From Escherichia phage ST32, in sequence record NC_047830.1: 53,092 nt of DNA. One strand, 5' to 3'. Below the pieces are notes generated by a model. It saw only the letters and a list, made by a program, of their open reading frames with translations. It made no database searches and had not been told where the DNA came from. Shown here piece by piece: positions 3,751 to 50,016 of this stretch (position 1 is its first letter; each line of letters begins with the position of its first letter). Made by a program: the position numbers and the translations under genes.

Positions 3751-3767
3751 CATTAGTTGCATGTGAA
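3751..3767 (+). promoter_or_regulatory. conserved phage promoter-like motif CATTAGTTGCATGTGAA
   Basis: motif family member; about 190 bp upstream of first early gene. Confidence 0.5.
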
Positions 3768-5355: not shown

Positions 5356-5667
5356 ATGGCTTCTTTACTCGAATTCTCAAATATTGCAAATGTTGCTAAG
5401 AATTCTATTCCTAAAAATCCAGATGTAGTTGCATACATGCGTGTTGATGTGAGTTTGTTGGCCTTTGTAATGGACCACATCAACCTTGTTGAAGAGCAGT
5501 TGCATCAAGCCAATGAAACAATTGATACTCTTCGTGAACTTCGTACAGCAGAGCAAAGTGCTTACGATGAACTGATGGAGCAGAAGAACAAGCTCCAAGA
5601 ACAGTTGGCAGATGCACTTCAACAAATTGAAGAACTGACGCCAACAGCCAGCTCAGCAACCAAATAA
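5356..5667 (+). CDS. hypothetical protein, predicted coiled coil
   Basis: ORF with AAGG RBS; heptad-like charged sequence. Confidence 0.55.
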   Translation: MASLLEFSNIANVAKNSIPKNPDVVAYMRVDVSLLAFVMDHINLVEEQLHQANETIDTLRELRTAEQSAYDELMEQKNKLQEQLADALQQIEELTPTASSATK

Positions 5668-5682
5668 CAATTGGGAGTTATT

Positions 5683-5943
5683 ATGGCGACTAAGACCGGA
5701 ATGATGATTGTCCCAAGCCGTAATAACTCTTTAAGCGGCTTTACACCATATAAAATCTATGAAGTAATTTCTGGCACTGGTGAAGCAAACCTGTCAGAAG
5801 TTGCTTTGAAGTTGGGCCGTATGGTCCACTCCGAAATCTCCTGTAACGTAGTTGATGACGAAGGTAAAATCCGTTTTGTAACAATGGATTTCTTTCGTGA
5901 ATTTAACCTCAAATCTGAATTGGGAGTTCTGTACCATGAATGA
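5683..5943 (+). CDS. hypothetical protein
   Basis: ATG 5683 preceded by GGGAG; track start is TTG 5671. Confidence 0.5.
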   Translation: MATKTGMMIVPSRNNSLSGFTPYKIYEVISGTGEANLSEVALKLGRMVHSEISCNVVDDEGKIRFVTMDFFREFNLKSELGVLYHE

Positions 5944-6118
5944 GGATGATGTTGTTTGCCCGAAGTGTGGCAGCAATAACGTAGACCATGTAACACACGA
6001 AGCAGTGGGAATGTATGGTCCCGTAGTTCTGGACAGTGCATTCTGTGTAGATTGTGGTTTAAACATTTATCGTGGAAAACTTATAGACAACAGTGGGAAT
6101 ATCCCGCCAAAAGGATAA
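5936..6118 (+). CDS. zinc-ribbon protein (CPKCG...CVDCG)
   Basis: two CxxC pairs; ATG 5936 overlaps upstream stop. Confidence 0.45.
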   Translation: MNEDDVVCPKCGSNNVDHVTHEAVGMYGPVVLDSAFCVDCGLNIYRGKLIDNSGNIPPKG

Positions 6119-6120
6119 TC

Positions 6121-6348
6121 ATGAAATTTAAATGTGTTGCTTCAACCAAAGATTATGTTCCAGTTGGCTTCATCGTTGAAGGTGAAGCTATCTCACCTTT
6201 GGAATTTAAAGTGACTAAATCTGCTGAGAATGTTTCTCCAGCATTTCGTAAAGGTGCTGTAGTTCCTATGAATGGTGCATTCTGGACATGGCAGCGTGAC
6301 CATGAAGCAGAATTTGCAGATATTTGTGAACAAGGTTTATTGCAATGA
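6121..6348 (+). CDS. hypothetical protein, paralog of 6345-6575
   Basis: AAGGA RBS; N-terminus MKFKCVAST.. resembles the next gene's MTKFKCVKST.. Confidence 0.5.
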   Translation: MKFKCVASTKDYVPVGFIVEGEAISPLEFKVTKSAENVSPAFRKGAVVPMNGAFWTWQRDHEAEFADICEQGLLQ

Positions 6349-6575
6349 CAAAGTTTAAATGTGTGAAATCAACCTCCTCATCTGAACATACTCCGAAAGT
6401 TGGGGATGTGATTGAGGGAGAACTTATCCACATACAGAGAAGACACGGAACAGACACTCGAATAGTTATTTCGAATGTTGGAAACCGAATGGCTGCAAAC
6501 GGAAGGCCATATTGGAACATTGGTGAAAAGGTTCCGCTAAAAGGTAGTGTCTGGTCCTGGGAAGAAGTCAAATAA
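6345..6575 (+). CDS. hypothetical protein, paralog of 6121-6348
   Basis: ATGA overlap with upstream gene; shared KFKCV..ST..VG..EGE motif. Confidence 0.5.
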   Translation: MTKFKCVKSTSSSEHTPKVGDVIEGELIHIQRRHGTDTRIVISNVGNRMAANGRPYWNIGEKVPLKGSVWSWEEVK

Positions 6576-6638
6576 TTTCCTCAACCACTTTTGTAATGAG
6601 AGTGGTTGCTGAATATTATTAATTAACTTGGAGCATTT

Positions 6639-6929
6639 ATGAAACAGCGTACTCGTTTACAACGTGACCCAGCCACAGGTCGCTTGTTACCAGCATATTT
6701 GAAAGTTGGTGACTTAGTTTACACTCGTGACTTTGCTTTTGATATTTGTCCAAGCAAAGCGTATGAAGTTCTTGCCACCAGCCTGTCTGGTCCTAAAGTG
6801 ATATTTGGTGCGCTTGAGCCAATCCAATTAACAGGAACTCAGTTTGTCATTAAAGACGAATCTGGTTGCAATCGTATCTTCAATCTCGAAGGTGGTTTAT
6901 CCAAATGGGAGAAGGTGAAGCGTGGGTAA
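6639..6929 (+). CDS. hypothetical protein
   Basis: ORF with GGAG RBS. Confidence 0.55.
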   Translation: MKQRTRLQRDPATGRLLPAYLKVGDLVYTRDFAFDICPSKAYEVLATSLSGPKVIFGALEPIQLTGTQFVIKDESGCNRIFNLEGGLSKWEKVKRG

Positions 6930-7155
6930 GAACTATATCGAAATGTTTAAGCAACTGTCCATCAATGGGCAGGAGTTCTTGCTAAACGATGCAAGGCAAG
7001 ATATTGAGCTGTCTGATAAATACAGTTACTCATATCAGAGAACTATTGTAAAATGGACGTTCTCTTATATATCTTACAATCTCCCAGGAGAAACGCTTGT
7101 AATTAGCGGTTCTGGTGATTCAGTTTTAGCAGCTTTGGAGAAATTAAAGCAATGA
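6922..7155 (+). CDS. hypothetical protein (GTG start)
   Basis: GAAGG RBS 6 nt upstream of GTG 6922. Confidence 0.45.
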   Translation: MGKNYIEMFKQLSINGQEFLLNDARQDIELSDKYSYSYQRTIVKWTFSYISYNLPGETLVISGSGDSVLAALEKLKQ

Positions 7156-7439
7156 ACAAGAATTCAATCTTACGTTATGTTGGTAAAACAAACTACAACT
7201 TTACCAACGGTAAGAAGTACAAAATCGTCGCAGGTCGTGGTGACGGGGTTCCTCGCAACAACGGTACACTCGGTGCGTATATTCAATCTCCTTTGGGTTT
7301 TGTCGTTAATGACGATAACCGCAATTTATGTTATCGTACATTCTCCGATAATTGGGAACTTGTGAAAGATTCTGGTGAAGTTAGTTGGTATAAACCTGAA
7401 TCAAACATGGACCCAATTCCAATTTCAAAGGTGATGTAA
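7152..7439 (+). CDS. hypothetical protein
   Basis: ORF, start overlaps upstream stop. Confidence 0.5.
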   Translation: MNKNSILRYVGKTNYNFTNGKKYKIVAGRGDGVPRNNGTLGAYIQSPLGFVVNDDNRNLCYRTFSDNWELVKDSGEVSWYKPESNMDPIPISKVM

Positions 7440-7636
7440 TGCGAGTAAATACTCATTTGTACAGCCACAAAAGCCACAGTCCTATGAACATCTTTGCTGG
7501 ATGGACTCTGTGGTTTGTTGGTGAAGAATGTAGTCCTTGGCATAACGTCGAGTGCAAATTCTTTCCAGTGAAGCCTACCAAAAAGCAAATCCGCAAATTG
7601 CGTAGGAAGTTTATAAACGATTGTAAGTCCTGTTAA
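7439..7636 (+). CDS. hypothetical Cys-containing small protein
   Basis: ORF with AAGGTGA RBS. Confidence 0.45.
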   Translation: MRVNTHLYSHKSHSPMNIFAGWTLWFVGEECSPWHNVECKFFPVKPTKKQIRKLRRKFINDCKSC

Positions 7637-7677: not shown

Positions 7678-7694
7678 CATTAGTTGAGTGTGAA
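7678..7694 (+). promoter_or_regulatory. conserved phage promoter-like motif CATTAGTTGAGTGTGAA
   Basis: motif family member, 20 bp upstream of gene 7715. Confidence 0.5.
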
Positions 7695-8197: not shown

Positions 8198-8235
8198 TTA
8201 TCAGGGTGCATTTACGAGTGTACCCGAATAATCCA

Positions 8236-8251
8236 ATTAGTTGGATGTGAG
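8236..8251 (+). promoter_or_regulatory. conserved phage promoter-like motif (AATTAGTTGGATGTGAG)
   Basis: motif family member upstream of gene 8323. Confidence 0.45.
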
Positions 8252-12159: not shown

Positions 12160-12176
12160 CATTAGTGGGATTTGAT
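12160..12176 (+). promoter_or_regulatory. promoter-like motif CATTAGTGGGATTTGAT with upstream TCTGAAA
   Basis: degenerate family member in the ORF-poor region 12090-13091. Confidence 0.4.
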
Positions 12177-12437: not shown

Positions 12438-12454
12438 CATTAGTTGGAATTGAA
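12438..12454 (+). promoter_or_regulatory. promoter-like motif CATTAGTTGGAATTGAA
   Basis: family member. Confidence 0.45.
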
Positions 12455-14576: not shown

Positions 14577-14594
14577 CATTAGTTGGATGTGGAA
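14577..14594 (+). promoter_or_regulatory. conserved phage promoter-like motif CATTAGTTGGATGTGGAA with upstream TTCTGAAA
   Basis: family member, 75 bp upstream of gene 14670. Confidence 0.5.
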
Positions 14595-22109: not shown

Positions 22110-22381
22110 TGAAAACTGTATATTCTATTTTTGATGTACAGGAATCAGAGCACCACATGTTTGCTACCGATTCCGAAGTTCTCGCAAAGGACGCTGTAAT
22201 TGCGTTCCTTGAAAAGATTAAGGACAAAGTTTTCGCTTCGTCCGACCCACAGTCTCAAGCATTTAACGATGAGACATTTAAAAGCCTCCAAACTTTAATT
22301 TCGGCAACGTCTTCATTTGAAGAGCTGTCCGAAGCATTAGTTGGATATGACTTCCGACTTGCTATGTTGCAGGTCGACTAA
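22109..22381 (+). CDS. hypothetical protein
   Basis: ORF, TAATG overlap. Confidence 0.5.
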   Translation: MKTVYSIFDVQESEHHMFATDSEVLAKDAVIAFLEKIKDKVFASSDPQSQAFNDETFKSLQTLISATSSFEELSEALVGYDFRLAMLQVD

Positions 22382-46829: not shown

Positions 46830-47471
46830 ATGGCTGGTAAACATGGCTTAGACATGCTGCTTTCGCAGTATGCACTTTCACCAAACTTACGCAAATATAT
46901 CTCCATCTTCTTGGAGGAGTTTGCAGAAGTTAAGAAGGCCATGGCTGACTCAATCAAGTACAGATACTTAGCAGACTCATTCGGCATCATGGTTGACGAC
47001 CTTGCATATCTTGTAGGGGCTTCTCGTGTAATACATGGTGCCGCAGCACTTGGGTACTTTGGCTTCTATGCCAACCCAGGTGCATTCTCTGCTGGTGATG
47101 ACAATAACCCAAGTGTTGGTGGTATTCTGAAATCAGATTACGACAGAGACTCTGGGGACTTTGTTCGAACAGATGCACAGTTGAAGGATGCAATACGTGC
47201 CCGAATCATCAAGATAACTGGCAACTGTACAATCGAACAAATCATCATGTACATTGAGTTGGTTGTGGGAAGGGAACTGAAACTTCAAATCGTCGAAGGA
47301 TTTCAGACAATGGATTATGTTGTTCATGAAATGTTGTCTGTACCTGAGAAAGTTCTTATGGCGCACATGCTTCCAAACTTTAAACCTGTTGGTGTTAAGA
47401 TTACCCTCAGGGATGCTGGAGGCAATATCGCCTTGGTCTATGGTTCCAAAGATTATCCTCCGGAGAAATAA
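46830..47471 (+). CDS. baseplate/tail protein (gpI-like, hypothetical)
   Basis: ORF by position. Confidence 0.5.
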   Translation: MAGKHGLDMLLSQYALSPNLRKYISIFLEEFAEVKKAMADSIKYRYLADSFGIMVDDLAYLVGASRVIHGAAALGYFGFYANPGAFSAGDDNNPSVGGILKSDYDRDSGDFVRTDAQLKDAIRARIIKITGNCTIEQIIMYIELVVGRELKLQIVEGFQTMDYVVHEMLSVPEKVLMAHMLPNFKPVGVKITLRDAGGNIALVYGSKDYPPEK

Positions 47472-48619
47472 TGACACAACGTCTTAAGTTTAATTTTCCC
47501 TGGGCGCAAGATGGTGAAGTTAAAGACCCGGACTTGGACACCTCTGCACCAAGTTTTATTGAAAACAGATATGCCGACGTAGGTTGGGAAGTTGAGAAGC
47601 CACCTAACGAGTGGCAAAACTTCTTGTCGCAGATTAGTGACTTGAAGATTATCTCGCTCTTGTTTAGTGGTGTCGCTGAGTTTGATTCCAGTGTGACCTA
47701 TCAGGTTGGTGCAGTTTCATCGCTCGATGGTGTTGTTCGTGTCTACACTTCCACAGGTTGGGAAGAGGTACTTAACCTCAAGAAGGTTGATTACCTTAAT
47801 GACATTAGCAACTTGAAGTCTATCTACGATAACCACTTGGCTGCAACCAACCCCCACAAGGATACTGTAGACACTGTAGTTAACAAGACTTACAGCAAGT
47901 CTACCATTGATGATGCCTTTGGGAGTAAAACAGACCCAAGAACCATTGTATACCACAAGCTGCAAACTGGCCGTGTTCACCAAGAAACTCCTCAACAGCT
48001 TGGGACACTTCCAACATCTGGTGGTAAGTTCTCTGGCCCTGTGTCACTCATAGGTGGAATGAAGTTTGGAACAAACATCTCAATCCGAATGAACCCAGGA
48101 AATGGCAGAATTGAGATGCGTGCTGGAAACAGGATTCTATCCATTGATGCACTTGGCAATGTTCTGTGGAGCATAGTTGGTGGTGAGGAATATCCAGTGA
48201 TGACTGAACTGAATTATTCAGAATTTCAGATTCGCTGGGGAAACAGGTTCGCACTTCCTCAACCATACCTTGACATGAACATGAAAACATCTATCAACGA
48301 TGCCATGTCAGTTCGTGGGTGGACTATTAGTACGTCGGATGCCCCGGTATTTCATCCCAAGGGTGGGATTAAAGTTGATGACAACACAATAACCTTTGAA
48401 GGTTTTGATGTTAACTGCCCAACGTCAATCGTCATGTATGGAAGAAATGCTGGTGGAAATCTTATCACAGCAAGGTCCATAAAGGCTCCGTCTGCTGGGT
48501 ACACTTCAATGGAAACCCTGCTGACAAACATGGGATTCACCTCTGCTGTTTGGGTCGAGAGAATTACCTGTTACCCAACTCTTACCGCATATCAACAATC
48601 AATGTTAGTGAGGCCATAA
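47471..48619 (+). CDS. tail fiber / baseplate-distal protein (putative)
   Basis: ORF with GGAG RBS before the fiber genes. Confidence 0.5.
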   Translation: MTQRLKFNFPWAQDGEVKDPDLDTSAPSFIENRYADVGWEVEKPPNEWQNFLSQISDLKIISLLFSGVAEFDSSVTYQVGAVSSLDGVVRVYTSTGWEEVLNLKKVDYLNDISNLKSIYDNHLAATNPHKDTVDTVVNKTYSKSTIDDAFGSKTDPRTIVYHKLQTGRVHQETPQQLGTLPTSGGKFSGPVSLIGGMKFGTNISIRMNPGNGRIEMRAGNRILSIDALGNVLWSIVGGEEYPVMTELNYSEFQIRWGNRFALPQPYLDMNMKTSINDAMSVRGWTISTSDAPVFHPKGGIKVDDNTITFEGFDVNCPTSIVMYGRNAGGNLITARSIKAPSAGYTSMETLLTNMGFTSAVWVERITCYPTLTAYQQSMLVRP

Positions 48620-50016
48620 TGGCAATTCGTCCTAAACTGAACCGAGTCTGGACCTCAAACAACTCTGTCGCAAGACGTGACCCAGGTGATGCAAAATATC
48701 TCAAGGGCTGGGTTGCAGAGATTCCAACTTACCAGGTTCTTAACTACCTGCAATACAAGATTGACACCACAATGCTTGCACAAGCAGAACGTGGAATCTT
48801 TGAGTGGGGCAGTGATGTAAGTTATGGCGTTGGTAGTTTGGCTTGGGACGAAACAGACAAAACCATTTATGTTTGTACTGTAGCCAGTCCTAGCAAAACA
48901 CTACGCCCAAGTGCAAACTCTGCACAGTGGAGTCCAAGCTCCATTCAAGTTTCTCGTGCAAATTACGACTCAATTGTTGCAGCAATCAATGCGCACATTG
49001 CAGACGTAACCTCAAACCCGCACAAAGTAACTGCTGCACAAATTGGTGCATATGACAAATCAGAACTTGATTCAATTGTTGCCAACTATCGTGCAATGGT
49101 TCAAGCACACGTAACGGATTACAACAACCCGCACAAACTTACTGCAACTCAAGTTGGTGCCGTCCCTGTAACTGGTGGTGCATATACAGGTGAAGTAACC
49201 TTCACGACTGTTTACTTAAATGATTCCAAGACTGCCCAGATTGTTAATGATGGTGGTGGCCTGTACCTTCGTAATGGCAGCTACTATCTTGGCATCAATG
49301 GAACTACGGGCAAGGCAGAAACTGGCACTGCTTCAAGCAAGTCTGCTATTGTCACGGAACTAAACTTCCCAGATGTTAAGGCGGCACAAGAACCAAGATA
49401 TGCTGCTGAACTTCCGGCATATGAAATGTCACTTATCAAGTCTGTAAACATTCTCCGTGGCGCTGGAATTTTCAACACATTTGCAACAGAACCTGCCTAC
49501 AATGAGGCTCTTGGTGGGGCACTGGCTTTTGTAACCCCCGATGTTGGTTCTGCGGGTATAAACTGGTTCAACAATACGCAATTGTCGAATGGCTCCAGGT
49601 ACACGATATGTATAGACTATACGAAGATTGTTCAAGATGGTGCGGATGGCAACTGGCAATTTGGCTTTGGTATGGAAACCTTGAAGGTTCTCGTATGTTT
49701 TGACGGTGGCGTCATTCTGCGATACAGAAACCCGTCAGGAGTACTTGTAAACACTCCCAAGACTATTAGTCCTGCTGTTGCAACTGTCGGGAAATGGTCA
49801 AGAATTTGTGTAACAGTGGCTGACTCCACTGCAAGAATATTTGTTGACGGTGTTCTTGTGGCTCGACACAGTATTCCAGGAATAGATTCCAACAACCGTA
49901 GGCCAACACTATCGACGTGGACCAAATCTTCTGCCATTACAAGGGCAGAGTTTGCTGTACGGTCCCTTCGTATTTGGGACAGTGCGCTGTCAAATGAACA
50001 AGTCTCAACTCTATAG
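48619..50016 (+). CDS. tail fiber protein
   Basis: 465 aa; repeated NPHK(V/L)TA(A/T)Q(I/V)GA segments; GTGAGG RBS, TAATG overlap. Confidence 0.6.
   Translation: MAIRPKLNRVWTSNNSVARRDPGDAKYLKGWVAEIPTYQVLNYLQYKIDTTMLAQAERGIFEWGSDVSYGVGSLAWDETDKTIYVCTVASPSKTLRPSANSAQWSPSSIQVSRANYDSIVAAINAHIADVTSNPHKVTAAQIGAYDKSELDSIVANYRAMVQAHVTDYNNPHKLTATQVGAVPVTGGAYTGEVTFTTVYLNDSKTAQIVNDGGGLYLRNGSYYLGINGTTGKAETGTASSKSAIVTELNFPDVKAAQEPRYAAELPAYEMSLIKSVNILRGAGIFNTFATEPAYNEALGGALAFVTPDVGSAGINWFNNTQLSNGSRYTICIDYTKIVQDGADGNWQFGFGMETLKVLVCFDGGVILRYRNPSGVLVNTPKTISPAVATVGKWSRICVTVADSTARIFVDGVLVARHSIPGIDSNNRRPTLSTWTKSSAITRAEFAVRSLRIWDSALSNEQVSTL

Follow-up and report, generated by a model that had tools for sequence, protein, structure and literature searches.

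Escherichia phage ST32 (Carltongylesvirus, Chaseviridae) carries two small neighboring genes whose proteins are similar in length and at their N-termini, which raises the questions of whether the two are paralogs, where the second copy came from, and whether their products act together or apart. We addressed these questions in the complete ST32 genome of 53,092 bp (NC_047830.1), hereafter the window. Gene A, the conserved paralog, occupies positions 6121-6348 of the plus strand (75 aa, pI 5.24), and gene B, the variable paralog, positions 6345-6575 of the same strand (76 aa, pI 9.58). These coordinates are exactly those of ORF12 and ORF13 in the published ST32 ORF table, and a sequence-only reading that had singled out the pair gave the positions, lengths and N-termini correctly. 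The ST32 paper annotates ORF12 and ORF13 merely as hypothetical proteins resembling gp10 and gp11 of phage phiEcoM-GJ1, and neither "paralog" nor "duplicat" occurs in its text; it describes neither the A/B paralogy nor the other features that we report here, namely the fusions, the variation in copy number and a hypervariable core in B. At the nucleotide level, the A/B region is 93.5% identical to Carltongylesvirus phages (phiEcoM-GJ1 group, Chaseviridae).

In a single-pair BLASTP comparison, 34% of the 71 aligned positions of A and B are identical (E=1e-9). When all 229 ORFs of the window are compared with one another, the pair scores E=3e-7, and no other pair of small genes falls below 1e-3. 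Their Smith-Waterman score of 84 was reached by none of 5000 shuffles (mean 22, sd 4.3, maximum 52). Similarity limited by chance to the 25 N-terminal residues would have undone the claim of tandem paralogy, and this was examined directly: without the first 24/28 residues the score is still 56, again matched by 0 of 5000 shuffles (mean 20, maximum 50), with KSAENVSPAFRKGAVVPMNGAFWTWQ aligned against RMAANGRPYWNIGEKVPLKGSVWSWE. Since the C-terminal parts alone thus exceed every shuffle, the likeness extends well beyond the N-terminus. Profiles built separately from the A and the B orthologs also align with each other (hhalign probability 97%, E=5e-11), and both proteins match the same PHROG profiles over their full length, phrog_18786 (A, 1.4e-32; B, 3.7e-19) and phrog_24403 (A, 1.6e-8; B, 3.5e-7), which include phiEcoM-GJ1 gp10 and gp11 and belong to the same family as A and B; these entries carry no function. 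Our own family HMM recovers A at 1e-22 and B at 1e-26 and finds no further copy in the window. The tandem paralogy is therefore upheld by BLASTP, shuffles, hhalign and a common PHROG.

A chance or low-complexity resemblance, or ORFs that are not real genes, has a next to negligible probability: the short length of the ORFs speaks for it and nothing else does, whereas the two proteins are significantly similar over their whole length and fall in a common PHROG, the genes are under purifying selection, and conservation extends to three families of phages, all of which speaks against it. Both genes are under purifying selection (dN/dS 0.14 for A and about 0.2 for B), which, together with the conservation of the family in Chaseviridae, Schitoviridae and Drexlerviridae, argues that they are real genes. 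Chance similarity is excluded, and to judge from sequence comparison A and B are real, anciently diverged paralogs.

Structure prediction gives the two proteins one fold. In the AlphaFold2 models, built with a 26-sequence alignment, B (pLDDT 91.6, pTM 0.76) is a five-stranded all-beta domain with strands at residues 2-9, 22-32, 35-44, 62-64 and 70-75 and a long beta2-beta3 hairpin. A has the same topology (mean pLDDT 87, rising to 92-97 over residues 1-60), with an additional C-terminal helix at residues 62-73 that is modeled at low confidence. A and B are thus predicted to be SH3-like small beta-barrels of five antiparallel strands, and the models match known SH3-like barrels in structure. 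In the family signature, strand 1 carries M-x-KFKC, strand 2 opens with VG-x-x-x-EG and the C-terminus has G-x-x-VPL-x-G-x-x-W-x-WEEV; G20, G67 and W72 are invariant, and F4, C6, G25, G60, P64 and W70 nearly so. Searches of Pfam, NCBIfam and PDB sequences with A and B returned no matches. The SH3-like barrels already known (eukaryotic SH3, the KOW domain of NusG/Spt5, the C-terminal domain of PhnA/YjdM, PsaE and Tudor) share 5-20% identity with A and B, differ from them in signature and are not matched in Pfam. In particular, A and B gave no Pfam SH3 match up to E 1, and so do not classify as canonical, PxxP-peptide-binding SH3 domains, no Pfam match to a KOW domain of the NusG/Spt5/ribosomal L24 type, and no Pfam match to PhnA, in which a Zn-ribbon and a C-terminal barrel lie in one protein.

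The nearest conceptual parallel is the GoF/MotB.1/Frd.2 set of phage T4, early proteins with an LSm-like fold that are diverged paralogs related mainly by predicted structure (PMC12152347). Like A and B, these are small beta-barrel paralogs encoded by early genes of a virulent coliphage. They are longer, however (119-141 aa, described as having N-terminal LSm-like motifs and further domains, as against 75-76 aa), and their genes neither adjoin one another nor are coupled in translation; descriptions of them include no cassette of hypervariable alleles. We also tried A and B as relatives of GoF and MotB.1, and rejected this at E 0.2-0.8 by hmmsearch and hhalign. The models of A and B begin with a strand rather than a helix, and together with the lack of similarity to GoF or MotB.1 this places them outside the LSm/Sm-like group. 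The comparison bears on a reading in which A and B are barrels of LSm, KOW or Tudor type that bind nucleic acid or the transcription machinery and modulate RNA stability, termination or translation, much as has been proposed for GoF, perhaps with the RNA hairpin that follows B. We regard this as unlikely: A is acidic and B alleles reach a net charge of -9.5, a poor fit to a common RNA- or DNA-binding surface, there are no Pfam KOW, LSM or Tudor matches, neither GoF nor MotB.1 is similar in sequence, and the models lack an N-terminal Sm helix.

The family, made up of small barrels about 65 residues long, is rare. An exhaustive HMMER search of 1.84 billion cluster representatives retrieved 34 clusters at E<=1e-3, and all members of checked origin come from phage genomes or phage-like contigs. 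A tblastn scan of about 50,700 phage genomes found the overlapping A-B pair in all of the approximately 44 Carltongylesvirus records, and single copies in N4-like Schitoviridae (Gamaleyavirus and Kaypoctavirus, 35-41% identity), in T1-like Drexlerviridae (Veterinaerplatzvirus) and in the chasevirus Erwinia phage Faunus; a scan of IMG/VR with a narrower alignment gave three loci, apparently of genomes already examined. Some members have additional modules: Gamaleyavirus proteins are extended by a helical tail, Veterinaerplatzvirus proteins by a phrog_7411 domain, and one further protein (P0054) by a Cys-rich C-terminal domain. Two metagenomic proteins (P0058 and P0062) are fusions of a barrel with DUF7279, and in the N4-like Klebsiella phage VLCpiP4b a DUF7279 gene (2706-2906 of locus L007) directly follows the barrel gene. 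ST32 itself encodes a DUF7279 protein of 65 aa further downstream (7439-7636, plus strand; PF23945, E=2.1e-15), and a literature search on DUF7279 found no functional data.

The sequence-only reading had explained the pair by local duplication followed by divergence, an account that the comparisons do not demonstrate. A and B share only 34% identity. In a neighbor-joining tree, the A types form one clade (60-100% bootstrap) that includes the single copy of Faunus and the C-terminal domain of a fusion protein, and the B types form a separate clade (70% bootstrap) that is not sister to it, while the deep nodes are without resolution. B is as close to the N4-like phage proteins (35-41% identity) as to A (34%), so that the two copies are not each other's closest relatives, as a local duplication would have left them. 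The identity level, the non-sister clades and the proximity of B to N4-like proteins together argue that the split is ancient or that the second copy was gained by recombination. Gain of copies does occur in present-day phages, as a third copy in phage FXie-2024a attests.

The two genes differ sharply in how they vary. Among 16-17 Carltongylesvirus genomes, A has a mean amino acid identity of 93% (dN 0.04, dS 0.29), close to the 94% of each of the flanking genes g5683 and g6639, and B one of 66% (dN 0.23, dS 1.26, which is saturated). A column-wise profile of nucleotide identity confines the divergence of B to the center of the gene. Mean pairwise identity is 0.85-0.98 in A and 0.73-0.85 in the first ~75 nt of B, falls to 0.44-0.66 in a hypervariable core at 6421-6540 (plus strand), returns to 0.82 in the last 30 nt (6541-6570) and reaches 0.94-0.99 over the stop codon and the hairpin behind it (6571-6630), the most conserved stretch of the region compared. 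The core spans codons 26-66 approximately, and its variable codons, about 26-60, fall in the predicted fold on the outer half of the beta2-beta3 hairpin and the loop that follows; an 8-codon indel within it, in the predicted hairpin, yields alleles of 68 aa. Net charge ranges from -9.5 to +4.7 among B alleles and from -3.4 to -0.4 in A, and at least four or five B allele types combine freely with two A types. The contrast between A (pI 5.2) and B (pI 9.6) in ST32 had suggested a conserved charge complementarity, which we discarded given this range of B alleles.

Simple positive selection as the main signal on B is rejected on dN/dS values below 1 together with saturated dS: the ratio is 0.29 in the center of the gene, against 0.13-0.14 at both ends. 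Saturated dS with dN/dS of 0.2-0.3 points here to old, shuffled alleles and not to a fast sweep. Taken together, the data indicate that the alleles of B are long-separated lineages, reshuffled by recombination while the scaffold stayed fixed, and not the product of a recent duplication racing apart. In this respect the locus resembles the mosaic accessory genes of phages ("morons" and early-region allelic cassettes): a deeply diverged center sits between conserved flanks, alleles reassort among genomes that are otherwise ~90% identical, and insertion takes place at a conserved intergenic hairpin. Unlike in the usual allelic cassettes, the mosaic boundaries fall inside the B gene, so that the barrel scaffold is kept and the hairpin and loop are exchanged.

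The RNA hairpin directly after B lies at 6582-6608 (plus strand), and the fold of 6570-6640 has an energy of -17.7 kcal/mol (z=-3.8). In SA91KD the corresponding site bears a terminator annotation, and the hairpin may be a terminator, an attenuator or an RNA-processing site. It also marks the boundary at which extra copies insert. The sequence-only reading had called A and B early genes, and this roughly holds: they lie in a cluster of small early/middle ORFs between the RNA polymerase and SSB genes, downstream of promoter motifs at 2634, 2898 and 3751. The motif annotated as a promoter in phiEcoM-GJ1, CATTAGTTGSATGTGA, has 10 matches in the window against 0.16 expected, all on the plus strand (590-605, 2634-2649, 2898-2913, 3751-3766, 7678-7693, 8235-8250, 12160-12175, 12438-12453, 14577-14592 and 22335-22350); the copies at 2634, 2898 and 3751 are exact, and the next ones downstream of A and B are those at 7678 and 8235. 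Between them, these ten matches seem to delimit the units of transcription across the left third of the genome. The nearest phage-type motif upstream of A and B (CATTAGTTGCATGTGA, 3751-3766, plus strand) is the likely start of the unit that holds them, and from the positions of the motifs we predict that this unit comprises ~18 small ORFs from ~3751 onward. Within it, A and B are probably co-transcribed, and the ATGA stop/start overlap of 4 nt between them (6345-6348, plus strand), which is retained as an overlap of 1 or 4 nt in the relatives examined, suggests that they are also translationally coupled.

Members of the family in chaseviruses always sit in the same slot, between a g5683-like and a g6639-like gene, in one to three copies, and they have been added, dropped, put in another order or fused there. 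In ST32, the slot reads Zn-ribbon gene, A, B, hairpin. In FXie-2024a, it reads A, B, hairpin, third copy, hairpin, and a repeat of TGGGAAGAAGTTAAATAA, the conserved 3' end, together with the hairpin bounds the inserted third copy. A divergent chasevirus contig of 52.8 kb (L022) has the reverse order, with a domain labeled X ahead of an A-like one, as separate genes with an ATGA overlap. In two other contigs (L023 and L026), X and A are fused into a single polypeptide of 146-149 aa whose second domain lacks a start codon, and in two contigs from independent samples (L024 and L025) A is followed by a 147-aa protein of two fused domains, the C-terminal one of which groups with the third copy of FXie-2024a (90% bootstrap). 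Faunus has one A-like copy. Fused two-domain proteins were found in five metagenomic contigs, as three distinct fusion proteins. Faunus excepted, an A-type domain always has a second domain alongside it. Where separate genes in one genome correspond to a fusion in the same slot of a relative, the products can be expected to act together (the gene-fusion or "Rosetta stone" argument), and these fusions suggest that A and B probably work as a pair.

The slot also accepts unrelated genes. The Zn-ribbon gene directly upstream of A (5936-6118, plus strand; 60 aa), with a CxxC...CxxC pattern and sub-threshold Zn-ribbon matches, is a presence/absence cassette of the slot, and 8 of 17 relatives carry one. 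Its matches to Lar restriction-alleviation proteins are likewise sub-threshold (PF14354, E=0.005; TIGR03655, E=0.088). This readiness to take in cassettes, as well as a third copy, is one reason to consider that A and B work independently, A in a conserved role and B as a separate, often-exchanged accessory factor (for example in counter-defense or host range), their adjacency reflecting no more than a slot that accumulates members of the family. The single copies found in many phages, the free recombination of A and B allele types and the evolutionary dynamics of B, so unlike those of A, fit such independence as well. It is harder to reconcile with three distinct fusion proteins on five contigs in the same syntenic slot, with a stop/start overlap retained genus-wide, and with the constant pairing of A-type domains outside Faunus. 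We consider independent action possible, at well below an even chance.

Our preferred reading, which we hold tentatively and at somewhat less than an even chance, is that A and B form one functional two-barrel unit in which A is constant, B offers an exchangeable surface, and the partner is variable and probably a host protein. In such a unit the two barrels would act together as two domains of one device, A (barrel and C-terminal helix) being the invariant subunit and B supplying a beta-hairpin that protrudes, together with a loop, both of which vary by allele in sequence, length and charge. B alleles would be exchanged among phages by recombination at the conserved ends of the gene, and the surface that varies among them would bind a partner that itself varies and is most plausibly a host protein. 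In this way the pair could tune how the phage deals with different host strains, via host take-over or counter-defense. Physical association of A with B, protein binding and a host target are what we infer here. Several observations weigh against the two-barrel unit. Single-copy members in Faunus, N4-like phages and Drexlerviridae indicate that one barrel can suffice. The free reassortment of A and B alleles argues against an allele-specific interface and fits independent functions equally well. The dN/dS ratio stays below 1 even in the variable core of B, and the opposite charges of ST32 A and B are not conserved.

The sequence-only reading had associated such genes with host interaction or anti-defense. 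For this the evidence is circumstantial: the hypervariable center of B is in its favor, and against it stand the dN/dS ratio below 1 in that center and the lack of any functional link found. Pfam, NCBIfam, PHROGs, PDB and the literature hold nothing that ties the family to a function, no annotated match to a characterized anti-defense protein was found in Pfam, NCBIfam, PHROGs, PDB sequences or BFVD, and literature searches on phiEcoM-GJ1, and on Chaseviridae with anti-defense, returned no functional data. A bolder version of the two-barrel unit would make A/B a modular specificity device, in which each hairpin/loop allele of B recognizes a different host factor or defense protein and recombination at the ends of B and at the RNA hairpin swaps or stacks specificities. 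The third copy of FXie-2024a and the fused double domain of L024 could be cases of stacking; we see only a small chance that this version is right. If true, it would be a small, previously undescribed polymorphic host-interaction system, with a single-domain form in N4-like and T1-like phages.

A/B is a feature of an ordinary kind, diverged paralogs among the small early genes of a phage. It gains some interest from the hypervariable cassette inside a gene, from the fusions that occur naturally and from the varying number of copies. Most early genes of virulent phages lack a known role, and this pair is a tidy, testable example. Carltongylesvirus phages are under consideration for biocontrol, and the allelic cassettes could account for differences in how their infections turn out from strain to strain. 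Should the B hairpin bind targets of host defense or take-over, the B alleles would serve as ready-made probes of these; otherwise two "hypothetical proteins" have still gained a fold and a family, and the locus is shown to be of an ordinary kind.

We also note several irregular records of the family. A 2177-bp ENA metagenome contig encodes a 114-aa in-frame chimera (P0043) that joins residues 1-46 of g5683 to residues 8-75 of A; unless it is an assembly artifact, it implies a deletion of ~320 bp that took out the Zn-ribbon gene along with the first strand of A. In TH25 (L017; MT446399, a record marked UNVERIFIED), the B copy at 1747-1956 is missing profile positions 1-6 and stands apart from A, through either a 5' truncation or a sequencing error. 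"Staphylococcus phage Pel53" (L021; PP952070) bears the host label Staphylococcus hyicus, which we consider doubtful: the phage is a Carltongylesvirus, its gene order is the same, and in the A/B region it is ~87% identical to E. coli phages.

Other genes around the locus are also variable or resemble one another. A 103-aa coiled-coil-like gene upstream of A (5356-5667, plus strand) has a mean amino acid identity of 65% among relatives (dS 1.13), with a recognizable ortholog in only 10 of 17 loci, and looks like another mosaic hot spot of the same transcription unit. Three neighbors of 86-96 aa (g5683, 5683-5943; g6639, 6639-6929; g7152, 7152-7439; all plus strand) resemble each other at the level of motifs (YKIYEV / KAYEVL / KKYKIV, and VVDDEGKIRF / VIKDESGCNRIF / VVNDDNRNLCYRTF). 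Tests of whether they belong to the A/B family or to a second one gave hhalign E-values of 0.001-0.05 at probabilities below 25%, with 0.02-0.05 for the likeness among the three, and a cross-match to phrog_18403 at E 0.0078. The three may represent another set of paralogs, older than A and B, and with support this weak we claim them neither as such nor as members of the A/B family. The sole other paralog pair in the all-vs-all comparison of the 229 ORFs is formed by two adjacent tail-fiber genes (47471-48619 and 48619-50016, plus strand), which both match phrog_8147; across 297 aa their products are 23% identical (E=4e-13).
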